A stretch of DNA of 64,000 nt from Clostridiales bacterium Firm_04 (GTDB lineage Bacteria; Bacillota; Clostridia; Oscillospirales; Ruminococcaceae). The notes below the pieces were generated by a model. That model did no database searches. It saw only the letters and a list, made by a program, of their open reading frames with translations, and was not told the origin of the DNA. Shown one piece after another: positions 7,399 through 53,694 of this stretch; position 1 is the first letter of the stretch; every line of letters begins with the position of its first letter. The stretch covers positions 14,073-78,072 of the forward strand of contig LVAJ01000028.1 in NCBI GenBank assembly GCA_001603005.1. The letters run 5' to 3'. Position numbers and translations under genes: made by a program.

Positions 7399-8538
7399 TT
7401 ACTTTGCAAGTGCCTGCTTTTTCAGAAGGCTGAGATCAGCGGACGTGAGTTCATTGTCCTTGTCCATGTCAGCGATCTTTGCCTGATCTTCCGTCAGCGA
7501 GCCGGTCGTCAGCAGATACTTCAGCAGCATAGCCGCATCTGCGTCATTGCATGCGCCGTCTGCGTTGATATCGCCGATGACCTCATCCTGCGGGATCACA
7601 TGCGACTCATCGAAGACCATTTTGGCTCTGGAAAGGAACGGATCAGCGGAATCCTTTTCGACGGCATTCCATGCAGACTGGCTGCCGTAGAATGTGATCG
7701 TTGCCGTGGAATTGTTGTCTGTGAATGCATAGCTGTCGATTTTTTTGAGATTGCCGGAGAGCTTGATATCGGTCAGCTTGTTGCACGCGGCGAAAACGCC
7801 GAATCCGAGGGAAGTGCAGCCGTTCAGCTCTGCGGATTTCAGGTTGTCGCAGTACCAGAAAACATTGTCGGTGATCTCGGTGACACTTGCCGGGAACGAA
7901 ACGGAAGTGATCTTGTCGTTCTTTGCGAATGCGCCCGAAGCGACATATTTGACGCCGGAAGGCACCTTGACATCGCCGGAGCAGGTTCTGCCGTCGATCA
8001 CGGCGCCGTTGACGATGACCAGCGGATCCTTTTTGCGCTGCGCTTCGAGCCACGGCGAATTGTCAAAGTTGTAGTCGCCGGTCTTCACGAGATGATCGGG
8101 GAAATTCACTTCTGTGAGCGATTTGCAATCCCTGAAGGATTCAAAAGCGATCTGTTCGAGACTGTCCGGAAATGTGACCGACTGAAGCTGGTCGCAGTTT
8201 GTGAACGCATACGGACCGATATAAGTGATCGTATCCGGAAGCGTCAGGGTTTTGATTTTTGCGTACTGACATGCATAGATGCCGATTTCCGTGACTGGCA
8301 GCCCGTCAATCGTTGCGGGGATCGTGAAATCCGAAGCCTCCCATGTGCAGCCGGAGATCACAATATGATCGGAATACTTGTAATAATTCAGATCACCTGA
8401 TTTGCCTACCGTATATTCCTCATCTGCGGAAACGGTCAGCGATGTGCCGAGCCATGTCTGAGCCGGAACTGCGGTCGTCAGCAGCGCCGCGGCGAGGAGC
8501 ACGGTTCCTCTGAAAAAATGCTTTTTTGATTTCATCAT
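7399..8538 (-). CDS. Secreted BspA-type leucine-rich-repeat protein with C-terminal dockerin
   Basis: ATGATG at 8538 follows AGGAGGG. Signal peptide MMKSKKHFFRGTVLLAAALL. Repeated units such as IGxYAFxxCxxLxSVTFPDS. C-terminal dockerin GDINADGACNDADAAML and ADMDKDNELTSADLSLL. Confidence 0.85.
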   Translation of the reverse strand: MMKSKKHFFRGTVLLAAALLTTAVPAQTWLGTSLTVSADEEYTVGKSGDLNYYKYSDHIVISGCTWEASDFTIPATIDGLPVTEIGIYACQYAKIKTLTLPDTITYIGPYAFTNCDQLQSVTFPDSLEQIAFESFRDCKSLTEVNFPDHLVKTGDYNFDNSPWLEAQRKKDPLVIVNGAVIDGRTCSGDVKVPSGVKYVASGAFAKNDKITSVSFPASVTEITDNVFWYCDNLKSAELNGCTSLGFGVFAACNKLTDIKLSGNLKKIDSYAFTDNNSTATITFYGSQSAWNAVEKDSADPFLSRAKMVFDESHVIPQDEVIGDINADGACNDADAAMLLKYLLTTGSLTEDQAKIADMDKDNELTSADLSLLKKQALAK

Positions 8539-8612
8539 AAACCCTCCTATTTTTTTGCATCTGTCTTCAGTGACCGGCAGCCCGTATCTGCCGTTTGTCA
8601 CCACTCAATTCC

Positions 8613-8641
8613 ATTATACATGTTTCGCGCGCGAAAGTCAA
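8613..8641 (-). promoter_or_regulatory. Sigma-A type promoter (TTGACT-17-TATAAT) of the LRR-dockerin gene
   Basis: Minus-strand reading is TTGACTttcgcgcgcgaaacatgTATAAT. The spacer carries the palindrome TTCGCGCGCGAA. Confidence 0.6.
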
Positions 8642-8754
8642 TGCTGATTTTGAATTTTTCTGCAAAGCGTGCATTTTTGAGGACATGCATCTTTACATTC
8701 AAATTTGACATACAAACGGACATGCAAACTGACATGAATCCAAACATACATAAA

Positions 8755-8995
8755 ACAGAATTTGACGGGCTGTTAGCCGTAATATGCAGCCCGTCAATAT
8801 GAAATTGTCAAGGTTCCAAGCGCGTTGTGACTTCGGCTTACTCCGGTCAGACACCTCATTGCGCTGCCGATTCTGCCTACTGGACCGCATCGGCTGACTC
8901 CGCATAATCATTCCCGCGGATGCCCCCGATGCACAGCGCCCTCTACTAATAGTGCTCAAATCGCGATTTTTTGCACGTTTCCGTGCAACTAGTAC
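8755..8995 (-). ncRNA. Candidate orphan structured RNA (~240 nt), class not recognised
   Basis: No credible ORF. Minus strand shows a 5' hairpin UUGCACG-GAAA-CGUGCAA (8988-8971) and nested helices GCGCUG/CAGCGC, GCAUCGG/CCGAUGC, CCGC/GCGG. A 3' 11-bp hairpin UUGACGGGCUG...CAGCCCGUCAA (8797-8762) is followed by AUUCUGUUUU. Confidence 0.3.
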
Positions 8996-9160
8996 CAAAT
9001 TGTAATCAAATCTTCAGATTCAGAGTAAAATAAAGCAAGATACGCCAATTTTATAACAAGATACTCATACAGAAGAACCGACCGGATTATTGGCAGCGGG
9101 GAAGCCCACGCGGGCATATCCCGCACCGATCTGACGGATCGTGGCGCATGCTTCTACTTC

Positions 9161-9203
9161 CCTAACCTATCCTTACCTATCCTAACCTATACTAACCTAT
9201 ACT
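9161..9203. repeat. Tandem 10-bp repeats, 4 copies (CCTAACCTAT-like)
   Basis: CCTAACCTAT CCTTACCTAT CCTAACCTAT ACTAACCTAT, read directly from the sequence. Confidence 0.95.
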
Positions 9204-9268
9204 GGGTTGACAGTTGGTTGACAGTTGGTTGACAGTTGGTTGTCAATTGGTTGTCGATTGGTTGTCAT
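9204..9268. repeat. Tandem 11-bp iterons, 6 copies (TTGGTTGACAG-like)
   Basis: GGGTTGACAG TTGGTTGACAG TTGGTTGACAG TTGGTTGTCAA TTGGTTGTCGA TTGGTTGTCAT. Period is one helical turn, and the first three units carry TTGACA. Confidence 0.95.
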
Positions 9269-9312
9269 CTGCGGGGAGCCGGTTTCGCGGACTGTCCCCG
9301 CATTCGCAGAAC

Positions 9313-9470
9313 AGCGAAATTTTTGCATCCTCTCCCATTGCACTTTTCGGCATAATATGCTATAAGCGGGCAGTGCCCGCAGCCGAGATAGCACCCAAGA
9401 AACGAAACTGCGAAATTTTTGCTTTCTCTCCCATTGCACTTTTCGGCATAATATGCTATAATAAAAGAAT
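9313..9470 (+). repeat. Two tandem ~60-bp promoter-bearing cassettes (copies A and B), homologous to 13437-13690 in inverted orientation
   Basis: Both copies read GCGAAATTTTTGC-T-CTCTCCCATTGCACTTTTCGGCATAATATGCTATAA(G/T). Copy A continues with GCGGGCAGTGCCCGC. Confidence 0.9.
9434..9462 (+). promoter_or_regulatory. Sigma-A type promoter in cassette B (TTGCAC-17-TATAAT) facing the sigma-factor gene
   Basis: TTGCACttttcggcataatatgcTATAAT. Copy A (9338-9366) is identical except for a TATAAG -10. Confidence 0.6.
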
Positions 9471-9547
9471 GTACACGGAGTGTGCGGGCGGATCATCGCT
9501 GCCTGTAACCCCCGCGGCAGAAAATCAAAAAAATTTTCGGAAAAGGG

Positions 9548-9575
9548 TGTAACCTTTTCTGACGGTTCGGGTCTA
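9548..9575 (+). promoter_or_regulatory. Candidate ECF-type autoregulatory promoter (TGTAAC-17-GTCTA) with upstream A/T tract
   Basis: CAAAAAAATTTTCGGAAAAGGGTGTAAC-N17-GTCTA. A near-identical block precedes the paralogous sigma gene at 31429-31485 on the minus strand. Confidence 0.5.
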
Positions 9576-9605
9576 TATAGGTGAAGGCACGAAACGCGAA
9601 GGGCG

Positions 9606-10172
9606 GTGGATGCCACGGAAGACGAAAGAATTCTTTTGCTGTTTGAAAATCGGAATGAGCAGGCGCTGGCTGAGACAGAAAGTCAGTATGGAGCGCGCTG
9701 CCGGACTGTTGCACGCAATATTCTGGGCAGTGAGCAGGACGCCGAGGAATGCATGAATGACGCATTGCTCAGCGCGTGGAATACCATCCCGCCGGCACAT
9801 CCCAAGCACTACGGTGCGTATTTTCTGACGCTGGTACGTAACTTTGCCCTCAAGCGCTATGCCGCCGGCCACGCCGAAAAGCGCGGCGGCGGACAAATGC
9901 CGCTTGCACTCGCGGAGCTTTCAGAGGTTCTGTCTTCCGGCGAAAACGTCGAGCGGGAAATCGACCGGCGCGATATGCTGGAAGCAGTCAAACTGTTTCT
10001 CGGCAGCCTGCCCGAACGGCAGCGAAATCTGTTCGTCCGGCGCTACTGGCATGCATCCCCGATCTCGGAAATCGCTGCGGACTTTGAGATGACGGAAATC
10101 AACGTGAAGGTGACGCTTTCGCGTATCAGAAGTCGGCTGCAAAAGCATCTGCGGAAGGAGGGATTGCTGTGA
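9606..10172 (+). CDS. ECF-like sigma-70 family RNA polymerase sigma factor
   Basis: GTG start. Region 2 (DAEECMNDALLSAWNTIPP, YFLTLVRNFALKRY) and region 4 (RQRNLFVRRYWHASPISEIAADFEMTEINVKVTLSRIRSRL). Confidence 0.85.
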   Translation: MDATEDERILLLFENRNEQALAETESQYGARCRTVARNILGSEQDAEECMNDALLSAWNTIPPAHPKHYGAYFLTLVRNFALKRYAAGHAEKRGGGQMPLALAELSEVLSSGENVEREIDRRDMLEAVKLFLGSLPERQRNLFVRRYWHASPISEIAADFEMTEINVKVTLSRIRSRLQKHLRKEGLL

Positions 10173-13436: not shown

Positions 13437-13690
13437 AGCTTCATTATAGCATATTATCCGGAAAAGTGCAATGGAGTGTGCGTTTTTTTCAAATGATGCA
13501 GAATGGGAACAGTAACTTATGAGAAGCCGCGAACAGCGGCGTGAACTGCGAAAGTTGGGTGATCCACGCTGCCGCACTCCGGAGGGATAAGCCAGCGGGG
13601 GCTCCCCGCCGGGCACTGCCCGCCGGGGACTGCCCGCTTATAGCATATTTTCCGGAAAAGTGCAATGGGAGTGAATGCAAAAAATCGGGG
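13437..13690 (-). repeat. Two promoter-bearing cassettes (copies C and D), inverted homologues of 9313-9470
   Basis: Minus-strand copy C is ACTCCATTGCACTTTTCCGGATAATATGCTATAAT. Copy D is TTTTTTGCATTCACTCCCATTGCACTTTTCCGGAAAATATGCTATAAGCGGGCAGTCCCC. Confidence 0.9.
13443..13471 (-). promoter_or_regulatory. Sigma-A type promoter (TTGCAC-17-TATAAT) of ade (cassette C)
   Basis: Minus-strand reading is TTGCACttttccggataatatgcTATAAT, ~28 nt upstream of the ade ATG and its AAAGGGGG RBS. Confidence 0.65.
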
Positions 13691-13722: not shown

Positions 13723-13804
13723 TGCACCTGACAGGACTTGAACCTGCACGCCTTGCGGCATTGGAACCTAAATCCAACGTGTCTGCCAGTTTCACCACAG
13801 GTGC
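13723..13804 (-). tRNA. tRNA-Leu (anticodon UAG)
   Basis: Minus strand reads GCACCTG-TG-GTGAAACTGGCAGACAC-G-TTGGA-TTTAGGT-TCCAA-TGCCGCAAGGCGT-GCAGG-TTCAAGT-CCTGT-CAGGTGC-A. It has a 7-bp acceptor stem, long variable arm, TTCAAGT T-loop and anticodon TAG. CCA is not encoded. Confidence 0.9.
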
Positions 13805-21330: not shown

Positions 21331-21560
21331 ACCGCCCGTGAAACAGAACGCTTCACGGGCGGAGATTGTCACAGTGATAAACGGCATTTGCCGCAGCTGT
21401 ACCGTCAGCGGCACAGACTGAACAATCTGTTTCTTCCATCCGGACTGTAACCGTCGGTACCGGAATTTCACCGGTTCAGCTGCATCAGCATAAAAACATA
21501 GAGCATCAGCAGTTCGCGGACTCTGACCGCCGGTGAGGAATTACACCTCGCCCTGAAACA
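21331..21560 (-). promoter_or_regulatory. FMN riboswitch (RFN element) with terminator expression platform
   Basis: Minus strand reads AGGGCGAGGTGTAATTCCTCACCGGCGGT..AGTCCGCGA...GAACCGGTGAAATTCCGGTACCGACGGT.ACAGTCCGGATGGAAGAAAC (aptamer ~21556-21425). The terminator CCGCCCGTGAAGCGTTCTGTTTCACGGGCGG+TTTTC follows at 21362-21326. Confidence 0.9.
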
Positions 21561-21583
21561 ATTGTGACGGATGCGGGATCAGC

Positions 21584-41319: not shown

Positions 41320-44300
41320 ATGAAGAAACACCATTGTCAAATCCGGAAGATCAGCGGCGGGCTCATGGGCGCGCTGATGATGCTGTCCGGAACGGTCATG
41401 CCGTATCAGGGGACCGCGCTGACGCGCACAGAGCTGGTCATCGGCTGGACTGCGGAAGCGGCGGCAGCTGCGGCAGAGACAGCGGATGCAGTTCCGGCAG
41501 CAGCCACGACTGCGCCTGCGACCACTGCAAAATCCACAGCAACGACTGCGAAACCCGCGGCAACGACTGCCAAGCCTGCTGCAACGACCGCATCGCCGGC
41601 TGTGACTGCGCCTGCGGGGAAATCGGACGGTTTTGTGTTCGGGATCGAGGAAGATCATGCTGTGCTCAAGCAGTATACCGGCGCGGCAGCTTCGGTCACG
41701 GTTCCGGCATCGTATCAGGGTGTTCCGGTCACGGAGATCGAATTGCGCGCATTCCAGAATAACAAAAATCTGACAGCAGTCGAGATCCCTGCAAGTGTGA
41801 AAAAAATCGGCGACTATTCGTTCATGGGCTGCGATGCGCTTGCAAAGGTGACGCTTTCCGAGGGACTGGAAACACTCGGATACTACGCATTTCAAGGCAC
41901 GCCGGTTACGGAGATCTGCATTCCGGCTACAATCAAATCGGCAGATGAGCCGTTTGCCGGCTGCAAGTCGCTCAGCAAGGTGACATTCGGCAAGGGGATC
42001 ACAAAGATCCCGGATTATTTGTTTGAAAACTGCAGCGGACTGACAACGGTCACGATTCCGGAGACTGTCACGGAGATCGGCAGCCGTGCATTCCAGAACA
42101 ACAAAAAGCTGACGGCGATCGAGATTCCTGCGAATGTGAAAAAAATCGGCGGCTATGCATTCATGGGCTGCGATGCGCTTGCAAAGGTGACGCTCTCCGA
42201 GGGACTGGAAACACTCGGATACTACGCATTTCAAGGTGCGCCGATCACGGAGATCTGCATGCCGGCATCGCTGAAAGAAACCGACGAACCGTTTGCCGGA
42301 TGCAAGTCGCTCAGCAAGGTGACATTCGGCAGGGGGATCACAAAGATCCCGGATTATTTGTTTGAAAACTGCAGCGGACTGACAACGGTCACGATTCCGG
42401 AGACCGTCACGGAGATCGGCAGCTGCGCGTTCCAGAACAACAAAAAGCTGACGGCGATCGAGATTCCTGCGAATGTGAAAAAAATCGGCGGCTATGCGTT
42501 CATGGGCTGTGATGCGCTAGCAAAGGTGACGCTTTCCGAGGGACTGGAAACACTCGGATACTACGCATTTCAAGGTGTGCCGATCACGGAGATCTGCATT
42601 CCGGCTACAATCAAATCGGCAGATGAGCCGTTTGTCGGATGCAAGTCGCTCAGCAAGGTGACATTCGGCAAGGGGATCACAAAGATCCCGGATAATTTGT
42701 TTGAAAACTGCAGCGGACTGACAACGGTCACGATTCCGGAGACCGTCACGGAGATCGGCAGCTGCGCGTTCCAGAACAACAAAAAGCTGACGGCGATCGA
42801 GATTCCTGCGAATGTGAAAAAAATCGGCGGCTATGCGTTCATGGGCTGCGATGCGCTTGCAAAGGTGACGCTTTCCGATGGACTGGAAACACTCGGATAC
42901 TACGCATTTCAAGGCACGCCGGTTACGGAGATCTGCATTCCGGCTACAATCAAATCGGCAGATGAGCCGTTTGTCGGATGCAAGACGCTCAGTAAGGTGA
43001 CATTCGGCAAGGGGCTCACAAAGATCCCGGATAATTTGTTTGAAAACTGCAGCGGACTGACAACGGTCACGATTCCGGAGACCGTCACGGAGATCGGCAG
43101 CTGCGCGTTCCAGAACAACAAAAAGCTGACGGCGATCGAGATTCCTGCGAACGTGAAAAAAATCGGCGGCTATGCATTCATGGGCTGCGATGCGCTTGCA
43201 AAGGTGACGCTTTCTGAGGGGCTGGAAACACTCGGATACTACGCATTTCAAGGTGCGCCGATCACGGAGATCTGCATTCCGGCTTCAATCAAATCGGCAG
43301 ATGAACCGTTTGTCGGCTGCAAGTCGCTCAGCAAGGTGACATTCGGCAAGGGGATCACAAAGATCCCGCAGGATCTGTTCTACTATTGCAGCGGACTGAC
43401 AGAGATCACGGTTCCGGAGACCGTCAAGGAGATCGGAACCCGTGCGTTTGCAAGCTGCAAAAATCTGAAAAAGGTGACGCTCTCCGAGGGGCTGGAAACA
43501 CTCGGATACTACGCATTTCAAGGTGCGCCGGTCACGGAGATCAGCATTCCGGCTACAATCAAATCGGCAGATGAGCCGTTTGTCGGATGCAGCGCGCTCA
43601 GCAAGGTGACATTCGGCAAGGGGATCACAAAGATCCCGCAGGATCTGTTCTACTATTGCAGCGGACTGACAGAAATCACGGTTCCGGAGACCGTCAAGGA
43701 GATCGGAACCCGTGCGTTTGCAAGCTGCAAAAATCTGAAAAAGGTGACGCTTTCCGAGGGGCTGGAAACACTCGGATACTTTGCATTCAACAGCACGCCT
43801 GTCACGGAGATCTGCATTCCGGCTACAATCAAATCGGCAGACGAGCCGTTTGCCGGATGCAGCGCGCTCAGCAAGGTGACATTCGGCAAGGGCATCACGA
43901 AGATCCCGCAGGAGATGTTCAGCTATTGCAGCGGACTGACGGAGATCACGGTTCCGGAGACCGTCAAGGAGATCGGAACCCGTGCATTTGCAAGCTGCAA
44001 AAATCTGAAAAAGGTGACGCTTTCCGAGGGGCTGGAAACACTCGGATACTACGCATTTCAAGGTGCGCCGATCACGGAGATCATCATTCCGTCCACGCTG
44101 AAATCGGCAGATGAACCGTTTGCCGGCTGCAAAGATCTGACATATGCGCATTTTGCAGAGGATATGGTCAATGTACCGGCAAACATATTTCAGAATGCGG
44201 GCGGTCTGGAAATGGTGCAGCTTGCTTCGACCACAGCGTCGATCGGCGAGCATGCATTTGACAACTGCCGGAAGCTCAGCACGATCTATCCGGAAGATCT

Positions 44301-53118: not shown

Positions 53119-53694
53119 ATTTCAATCCACGCCCCTGTGCATGGGGTGATGCGGAAAGACCTACACGGTGACGGCAGGTTCTCAATTTCAATCCACGCCC
53201 CCTGCGAAGGGGGCGACCGCTGCTTCTCTCGTGTTCCTCGGCGTCCGGCTCTGATTTCAATCCACGCGCCTGTGCATGGGGCGACATAGCCGAGTGTTCC
53301 TGTCAGGACGGCAAGGCACATATTTCAATCCACGCCCCCTGTGCAGGGGGCGACGTCATAAGATCCAATATCATTAAAATCATTATGATTTCAATCCACG
53401 CCCCCTGTGCAGGGGGCGACAACCATGGGAGCCGGTCGAGACAGACACCAAAGAAAATTTCAATCCACGCCCCCTGTGCAGGGGGCGACTCTTGCTGTTG
53501 GTTGGTATCGTTTCTATATTTTTGTTATTTCAATCCACGCCCCCTGTGCAGGGGGCGACCTCTGTGCATACGGATACTTTTTGTGCATCTGATAATTTCA
53601 ATCCACGCCCCCTGTGCAGGGGGCGACCGCAGATGATGCAGGCTTTTATGCAGTTCATGCAATTTCAATCCACGCCCCCTGTGCAGGGGGCGAC
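53119..53694 (-). CRISPR. Type I-C CRISPR array, 9 repeats / 8 spacers, leader at the cas2-proximal (high-coordinate) end
   Basis: The 32-33-nt repeats start at 53119, 53185, 53254, 53322, 53388, 53457, 53527, 53595 and 53662. The minus-strand consensus is GTCGCCCCCTGCACAGGGGGCGTGGATTGAAAT. Spacers are 33-37 nt. The three lowest-coordinate repeats are degenerate, marking the trailer end. Confidence 0.97.

Follow-up and report, generated by a model that had tools for sequence, protein, structure and literature searches.

A putative orphan copy of a Tuc2009-type phage origin repeat block in the chromosome of a rumen Clostridia bacterium

What is the nature of two different short tandem arrays that stand back to back in an intergenic region of a rumen Oscillospiraceae/Ruminococcus-like bacterium? 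The locus lies within the window, by which we mean the whole stretch of 64,000 nucleotides that was analysed, and an earlier note made from its sequence had described four 10-bp repeats abutting six 11-bp repeats at 9161–9268. This description was confirmed by the sequence itself and by Tandem Repeats Finder, which reports a 10-bp array of 4.0 copies at 9161–9200 (90% matches, score 66, consensus CCTAACCTAT) and an 11-bp array of 5.5 copies at 9205–9264 (93% matches, score 85). From position 9203 onwards the 11-mers read, in order, TGGGTTGACAG, TTGGTTGACAG twice, TTGGTTGTCAA, TTGGTTGTCGA and TTGGTTGTCAT, the last of which ends at 9268. The 7-nt core of the unit is intact in all six except the first, which has G for T at position 2, and the hexamer TTGACA is contained in the first three 11-mers, with GTCAA, GTCGA and GTCAT in the last three, just as the earlier note had claimed.

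With up to one mismatch, the CCTAACCTAT 10-mer is found four times in the 64 kb, always within the array, against 0.52 matches expected by chance, and this count was reached in none of 100 shuffles of the window. Single 11-mers (up to two mismatches) are not enriched across the window, with 10 found and 13.6 expected; the non-random feature of the 11-mers is their tandem run and not the number of single units. The idea of a promoter cluster was dropped because none of the TTGACA hexamers has a fitting -10 element in a sigma-70 promoter scan. A 'terminator-like' match at 9209–9255 was also rejected, this being the repeats pairing with themselves. Single-strand folding of 9140–9310 is unremarkable (z = -1.4), and Rfam gives no RNA family at the locus, either at gathering thresholds over the whole window or with E values up to 1 over 8500–9700. 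The features of the locus are collected in Table 1.

Table 1. Coordinates of the repeat block, its neighbours and other features of the window.
Feature	Position	Strand	Details
Whole block	9155–9271	+	Homologous to the repeat (origin) region of phage replisome-organizer genes
Four 10-bp pyrimidine-rich repeats	9161–9200	+	CCTAACCTAT / CCTTACCTAT / CCTAACCTAT / ACTAACCTAT
Six iteron-like 11-bp units	9203–9268	+	Consensus TTGGTTG(A/T)C(A)N, also written TTGGTTGWCNN
LRR_5 and dockerin gene	7399–8604	-	From ORF translation and Pfam
Promoter-like modules, extended -10 type	9338–9366 and 9434–9462		First module ~70 bp downstream of the array
ECF-type promoter	9548–9576		TGTAACC, ~15 nt, GGGTCTAT; just upstream of the sigma ORF
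ECF-type sigma factor gene	9606–10172	+	ORF starts 338 bp downstream of the array; putative anti-sigma gene next
tRNA-Leu	13723–13804	-	
FMN riboswitch	21424–21564	-	110 bits

The arrays sit in an intergenic region of roughly 1 kb, and the nearest gene is indeed the ECF-like sigma factor that had been placed about 340 bp downstream. No par or integrase gene had been seen nearby, and none is present among the ORFs of at least 150 aa that were read as far as 16 kb (three of these are named by Pfam, the remaining names being a reading of the translations). Further out, one flank carries thiamine-biosynthesis genes and a CotH-type gene (CotH Pfam match on the conspecific copy), and the opposite flank carries adenine deaminase (Pfam, on the conspecific copy), acetyltransferases, an aldolase and the tRNA-Leu. 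The sigma factor is 88–91% identical to homologues in rumen Oscillospiraceae/Ruminococcus MAGs, and the control region of its gene begins at about 9315 and runs rightwards. Within this region a 56-nt promoter-like module (TTGCAC, 17 nt, TGcTATAAG/T, with GAAATTTTTGC before it) occurs in tandem at 9310–9365 and 9406–9461, 96 bp apart. Two copies of it are present in the window and in the conspecific contig L034 and one copy in contigs L035, L039 and L043, and more copies are found at 13638–13687(-) and 13443–13474(-), near the tRNA-Leu and the adenine deaminase gene. The ECF-type promoter and the extended -10 module are both kept in three sister-species loci (L001–L003), and the retention of the ECF-type promoter suggests that the sigma/anti-sigma operon may be autoregulated. 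On the other side of the arrays, the region upstream of the LRR gene contains GACATGCAAAC-type 12-bp repeats (8707–8747) and a perfect 11-bp inverted repeat, TTGACGGGCTG...CAGCCCGTCAA (8762–8797).

In such a setting the arrays might be a cis-regulatory operator, that is, a set of cooperative repressor or activator sites for the ECF sigma operon or for the divergent LRR-dockerin gene, and cooperative repressor operators had been among the readings of the earlier note. The position of the array, ~70 bp upstream of the first promoter-like module and 338 bp from the sigma ORF, would allow this, and an 11-bp phasing would suit cooperative binding. However, L001–L003 keep the sigma gene, the extended -10 module and the ECF-type promoter without an array, orphan arrays of the same kind elsewhere also occur where genes converge or behind stop codons (L084, L088 and L082), and the sequence is common to phage genes and not to other host promoters. 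The repressor-operator reading thus found no support, and we regard control of either gene by the arrays as very improbable.

A ParR-type centromere had been proposed as well, and in form the phased blocks of 10–11-bp repeats do resemble both parC and iteron origins, so that one might think of a ParR/parC centromere, or of a secondary or plasmid origin that has integrated in the chromosome and is active. An AT-rich tract (30–37% GC) at 8960–9080, ~80–200 bp to the left of the arrays, would suit an origin, but may just as well belong to the promoter of the LRR gene. Against both forms of this reading, there are no adjacent par or rep genes, the flanks being the LRR_5/dockerin gene and the genes for the ECF sigma and putative anti-sigma factors, with no parM-parR operon; there is no DnaA box (TTATCCACA, up to one mismatch) within 8500–9700 and no GC-skew switch at the array site; and every homologous block belongs to a phage replisome-organizer gene. 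The centromere found no support in these comparisons, and we attach next to no credence to it or to an active origin of this kind; an oriC-like origin was likewise rejected.

The block at 9155–9271 is colinear with a composite of repeats on the antisense strand of phage replisome-organizer genes, and has the same repeat types in the same order and orientation. The composite is defined by 10/15-bp repeats rich in pyrimidines and, after them on the same strand, three or more 11-bp TTGGTTGWC units, and both parts are present in the window. In orf16 of Lactococcus phage Tuc2009, the record of which reads 'Rep; contains origin of replication', the antisense strand carries Y-rich CTATCCTTACCTA-type repeats, then TGTGCGGACAT and then four TTGGTTGnnnn units, and reads ...CTATACTATCCTTACCTATACTATCCTTACCTAACCTAACCTCTCCTATCCTATCC-TGTGCGGACAT-TTGGTTGtcat-TTGGTTGcggaa-TGGTTGacac-TTGGTTGccaag. 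Two further carriers of the composite, gp38 of Brochothrix phage NF5 and gp10 of Lactococcus phage 50902, are annotated as DnaD-like helicase loaders, and many prophages have it too. An alignment of the window block with Tuc2009, 50902, NF5, a rumen prophage (L116) and an orphan array (L075) has a mean column identity of 73%, and in a blastn search with 9150–9280 against all fetched loci the best match is L075 (9161–9271, 86%, E 1e-32), followed by L096, L116 and NF5. Judged by its sequence, the window block is a chromosomal copy, without the gene, of the repeats that make up the origin region of Tuc2009-type phages.

Within the phage genes, the repeats code for the linker that joins the N- and C-terminal domains of the replisome organizer. 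The likeness to Tuc2009 rep2009 (orf16; per2009) extends to the arrangement of pyrimidine-rich CCTTACCTA/CCTAACCTA repeats, a short junction and 11-bp TTGGTTGnnnn units, which follow each other in the same order in the window. The number of units differs (four in Tuc2009 and six in the window), and in Tuc2009 the block codes for the linker of a 260-aa DnaD-like protein, so that the initiator is in cis, whereas no rep domain is present in the 64 kb of the window. Of the earlier suggestion of a plasmid or phage origin, then, the origin sequence is supported, since the block is homologous unit for unit to the Tuc2009 orf16 repeats, and a working origin is not, since no initiator gene is in view. 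The GGTT core that had been noticed on opposite strands of the two arrays is present in the window but is not general in the family, many relatives having CTTATCTTAAC- or TCCTCTCCTATCC-type 10/15-bp repeats. The replisome organizers of Lactococcus phage r1t (ORF11) and phage TP901-1 (ORF13) also have direct repeats in the middle of their genes, and the annotation of the TP901-1 rep gene calls it a replication protein on experimental grounds. In r1t, three copies of TTCTTATCTAATCTA are followed by four GGTTCCnnnnn units with an 11-bp period. Their repeat sequences (GGTTCC in r1t and CACATCTGGAAAA in TP901-1) are unlike those of the window, and both arrays stay with their gene, in contrast to the array described here.

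A scan with a three-unit 11-bp pattern returned 83 IMG/VR loci and 46 GTDB loci. An antisense ORF of 196–344 aa reads through the array in 72 of the 79 newly fetched IMG/VR loci, with ~110–150 residues before the array and ~90–165 after it. With E values of 1e-31 to 1e-76, representative read-through ORFs match PHROGs that are annotated either 'replisome organizer' or 'DnaD-like helicase loader', and a tblastn search with one of them found 503 GenBank phage records with the same annotation, those of Staphylococcus, Streptococcus, Bacillus and Lactococcus phages coming first. For the phage rep proteins, sequence searches against Pfam, NCBIfam and the PDB gave nothing useful, and the names used here are those of PHROGs and the GenBank annotation only. 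In most of the ~125 related loci 10/15-bp repeats lie 5' of the 11-bp array, with a repeat type that varies between lineages. An exact 20-mer scan of the GTDB genomes gave L019, L023, L025 and L026 as true relatives; two-unit 20-mer matches from the same scan in unrelated phyla were set aside, as they look like chance tandem duplications. An 18-nt junction pattern found random coding matches only, apart from L032/L033; a metagenome scan with the left flank of the window gave no matches, and a second metagenome scan gave L116-type prophage rep genes only. A literature search by repeat sequence strings returned primers only. The search of related genomes for the 10- and 11-mers, which the earlier note had recommended, thus ties the arrays to phage replisome-organizer genes and brings to light orphans in addition. 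The closest rep-linked relatives of the window block lie in prophages of rumen or gut Ruminococcus and Oscillospiraceae (L096 and L116), and the block therefore most likely derives from a phage of this kind.

The comparison of the loci also indicates which molecule is conserved. The 85 read-through ORFs form 45 clusters at ~70% identity, among which at least three kinds of N-domain can be told apart by inspection: RRMFSK..LYFHL..ADDDGF (Firmicutes), a Bacteroidetes-type winged helix, and ADDDGR..HPNWxKYQ. The core TTGGTTG is common to all of these N-domain kinds with 1.5–2.0 bits per position, positions 8, 10 and 11 being free, and the units of the window share their position weights with 44 rep-embedded and 15 orphan arrays. 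As the 11-bp period puts the units in all three frames, the conserved 7-nt core cannot be a codon effect, and selection acts on the DNA and not on the peptide. One 11-bp core (TTGGTTGWC) is then common to the origin regions of very different Firmicutes phage initiator families and, by sequence, to those of Bacteroidetes-type initiators.

Does the window nevertheless contain the remains of such a gene? In tblastn searches, first with four rep proteins and later with 85 N- and C-domain sets, only the repeat-coded linker is matched in the 64 kb, in agreement with the earlier statement that no rep gene lies nearby; such orphan calls depend on the chosen rep set, which novel rep families could escape. 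The flanks (8800–9160 and 9269–9420) have no blastn matches to any of the related loci and the block itself has hundreds, so that similarity starts and stops at the block edges. Every antisense frame of the 10-bp array contains stops. An antisense ORF at 9197–9616 overlaps the 11-bp array and ends at the array boundary; it has no Pfam or PHROG match, and the intergenic ORFs have no PHROG match. Thus the block is not inside a DnaD-like ORF and encodes no inter-domain linker, as a Tuc2009-type origin would, and the 64-kb window has no cognate initiator gene with a helicase-loader or recombination module. Since no rep gene is nearby, the block is not a working origin with its own initiator, but an orphan.

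Orphan arrays recur in other genomes. Among the GTDB loci with three or more units, 46 in number, 15–17 have an adjoining rep N-domain, about 22 were classed as orphans and 8 are in different or uncertain contexts. The clearest orphans (L075, L079, L082, L084, L088, L102, L105, L107, L108, L111, L114 and L115) are found in unexceptional intergenic stretches of gut and rumen Clostridia genomes, and the genes around them may be divergent, tandem or convergent. Orphans tend to be longer, with a median of 8 units where genomic rep-linked arrays have 5 (one-sided P = 0.04) and the arrays of viral contigs 3, with the provisos that the unit count is tolerant (the window scored 8, not 6) and the viral set redundant (29 of its 79 loci are in one cluster). 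The orphan array L088 reaches ~30 units, and several arrays are found in single MAGs, for example RUG13966 and MAG220. MAG contigs often break at such arrays. In all three MAGs with both an orphan and a rep-linked array (the pairs L088–L104, L084–L085 and L108–L086), the best match of the orphan among ~120 blocks is the rep-linked array of the same MAG. From this matching, the genome of the window or its phages are predicted to carry a rep gene with CCTAACCTAT-type repeats.

Further features are seen around these arrays. Among the orphans L023, L075, L094, L107 and L108 and the rep-linked L104, the neighbours are often very large proteins of 1239–2069 aa; two of these proteins have Big_2 and FIVAR domains, and those of L104 and L108 have no Pfam match. 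Other neighbours are defence-like or helicase genes, among them a TIR protein of 1140 aa and a helicase with an RNAP alpha-CTD domain, and the surroundings of the arrays in other MAGs look like a variable-island context. At L023 (4900–5620(-)), L079, L102, L105 and L107 purine-rich ATAGGTTAGG-type repeats come after the TTGGTTGWC units, in opposite relative orientation, and L023 also has (GTACA)n and (AGTGGAT)n runs. In L025 (440–1817) a 10-bp and GGTTGACAGTT array lies between a tRNA fragment and the tyrosine integrase of a small integrated element, and in L026 (~1990–2409) such an array is found at a tRNA 3' end, beside a gene that by eye is RelE/Gp49-type toxin-like. Because these two arrays, which represent a further setting away from rep genes, adjoin an integrase or a tRNA fragment, arrays may serve as att arms in some elements. 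For the window array there is no adjoining integrase, and the tRNA-Leu is 4.5 kb away.

The behaviour of the array between strains was examined in contigs from other samples that encode an identical sigma protein, a comparison of repeat number that the earlier note had called for. The array is at the same place in four of them, with seven 11-bp units in L034, six in L035 and L039, which carry substitutions, and five in L043. The 10-bp array is invariant in L034, L035 and L039, the L043 contig starting inside it. A further conspecific contig, L037, has different upstream DNA and no array, and at the sister-species loci L001–L003 the array is absent although the sigma gene (88–91% identity) and both promoters are kept. 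The strains differ from one another almost only at positions 8, 10 and 11 of the unit, and all but one of the differences are outside the core. This pattern fits a constraint on the core, and shuffling of units by unequal crossing-over could give the same pattern. The earlier note had allowed for a strain-specific microsatellite, and it is true that the copy number varies and that one strain lacks the array; a chance microsatellite was nonetheless rejected, as the repeat family is conserved far beyond the species.

A decaying scrap of phage DNA, neutral and partnerless, could also behave as a minisatellite. The change from five to seven units between strains with substitutions in the units, the absence of the array from L037 and the sister species, and the lack of a rep gene in the 64-kb window are what such a scrap would show. 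The 7-nt core is, however, intact in the six units but for one base, with all but one of the strain differences outside it, and a cognate rep-linked array coexists with the orphan in 3/3 testable genomes, so that some hosts, at least, probably hold a partner. On balance we consider neutral junk distinctly unlikely.

The reading that we prefer, with a probability of roughly 0.6, is that of an orphan origin block of phage descent, to which the initiator of a cognate phage would bind in trans. In such phages the replisome-organizer gene, which encodes a DnaD-like helicase loader, holds the block between its N- and C-terminal domains, and in the window only the DNA repeats reside, in an ordinary chromosomal intergenic region. 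Alone, the block would be inert. When a phage or a resident prophage expresses the cognate initiator, the six units would be bound in trans, and the consequence might be titration or handcuffing of the initiator or, alternatively, local (ectopic) firing of the block as an origin. It weighs against this reading that none of the clean-edged orphans inspected has a flanking rep remnant (the partial cases L077 and L104 keep the N-domain), which is not as simple prophage decay predicts.

Several known systems bear on this proposal. In Tuc2009 and in TP901-1 the replisome organizer binds to direct repeats in its own gene, which constitute the ori, and these origin repeats, when cloned in trans, confer phage-encoded resistance (PER; PMC8965321). 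Plasmid-borne lambda origin iterons inhibit rep-lambda phages, and in trans the lambda iterons silence the replication of cognate phages even without the AT-rich part (PMC3349717). The lambda iterons ITN1-4 in gene O bind the initiator and, like the phage repeats from which the present block would derive, lie inside an initiator's own coding sequence; they differ in being 18-bp iterons of unrelated sequence that serve an initiator of another fold family, their inhibition also needs oop RNA, and it was obtained with an engineered plasmid and not with a natural chromosomal copy. In plasmids, iteron control loci such as P1 incA and F incC are initiator-binding repeats outside the origin that act only via initiator binding, by titration or handcuffing. 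These loci share a replicon with their rep gene and control its copy number, whereas the window array is chromosomal with no rep gene in view. Titration or handcuffing by the window block is plausible because of the PER of lactococcal and streptococcal phages, the lambda inhibition phenotype and the plasmid iteron control loci. A strong effect is doubtful because PER is copy-number dependent and the window offers six units in a single copy.

Binding in trans might also have been selected for, the iterons being kept by the host or a prophage as a decoy or incompatibility locus that soaks up or handcuffs the initiator of incoming cognate phages. Such a locus would be a natural chromosomal PER or the equivalent of plasmid incA-type iteron control, and origin iterons in trans can block phage replication. 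The greater length of the orphans relative to rep-embedded arrays, the presence of several arrays in RUG13966 and MAG220, and the match of orphans to a rep-linked array of the same genome all argue for it, as do the near-confinement of strain differences to the free positions and the lack of rep remnants at clean-edged orphans, including that of the window, which would be expected if the repeats alone are kept. Against it, PER was shown on multicopy plasmids, and six single-copy units may do little; slippage and unequal crossing-over can by themselves make arrays longer and more uniform and reshuffle unit variants that are already present; the array is missing from one conspecific contig; and the viral set used in the length comparison is redundant. 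A selected decoy is in our view conceivable but doubtful.

The same caution applies to the orphans as a class, for which we suggest only tentatively, and with more doubt than belief, that they may be functional DNA-only elements, either decoy or incompatibility loci (natural PER) or phage-triggered ectopic origins that amplify neighbouring genes. Orphan arrays would in that case be chromosomal sets of initiator-binding sites matched to the phage family that lives in or attacks the host, and ectopic origins would amplify neighbouring variable genes such as those for surface proteins, defence genes or, in the window, the sigma operon.

Origin iterons inside a replisome-organizer gene are of an already known kind; of their gene-less chromosomal form, its recurrence and expansion and its matching within the same genome, we found no description in the literature searched. 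The homology ties an anonymous repeat to a defined system, the Tuc2009-type phage origin and its DnaD-like replisome organizers, and the repeat block also stands alone in chromosomes, where it tends to be expanded, is sometimes multiple and matches the rep-linked copy of the same genome. Should the orphans bind phage initiators, they would provide a simple, testable example of how DNA alone may interfere with the replication of phages, or of local amplification driven by a phage; otherwise they would still be a useful marker of past phage traffic and a frequent source of contig breaks in metagenome assemblies.

Elsewhere in the window, a short CRISPR array is found at 53388–53694, with five copies of ATTTCAATCCACGCCCCCTGTGCAGGGGGCGAC and four spacers; three of the spacers have no exact match in IMG/VR and thus provide no link to a cognate phage. 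The region upstream of the sigma promoter seems to collect different repeat cassettes. At the place in L002 that is equivalent to that of the array (2370–2850) there are 7-bp AGTGAAT/AGTGAAA repeats with an inverted copy, together with a twice-repeated ~190-bp GC-rich hairpin element. An inverted piece of this hairpin element is present in L037 (1–330), the contig starting with GTTTGCCAACGGCAAAC-GTGCGC and a pyrimidine tract. Long tandem repeats, with periods of 339 bp (x5.1) and 270 bp (x3.5) and 92% matches, are located at 41728–44131 of the window, probably in another LRR-type protein gene, since they are ~78% similar to the copy of the LRR-dockerin gene in L034/L035.
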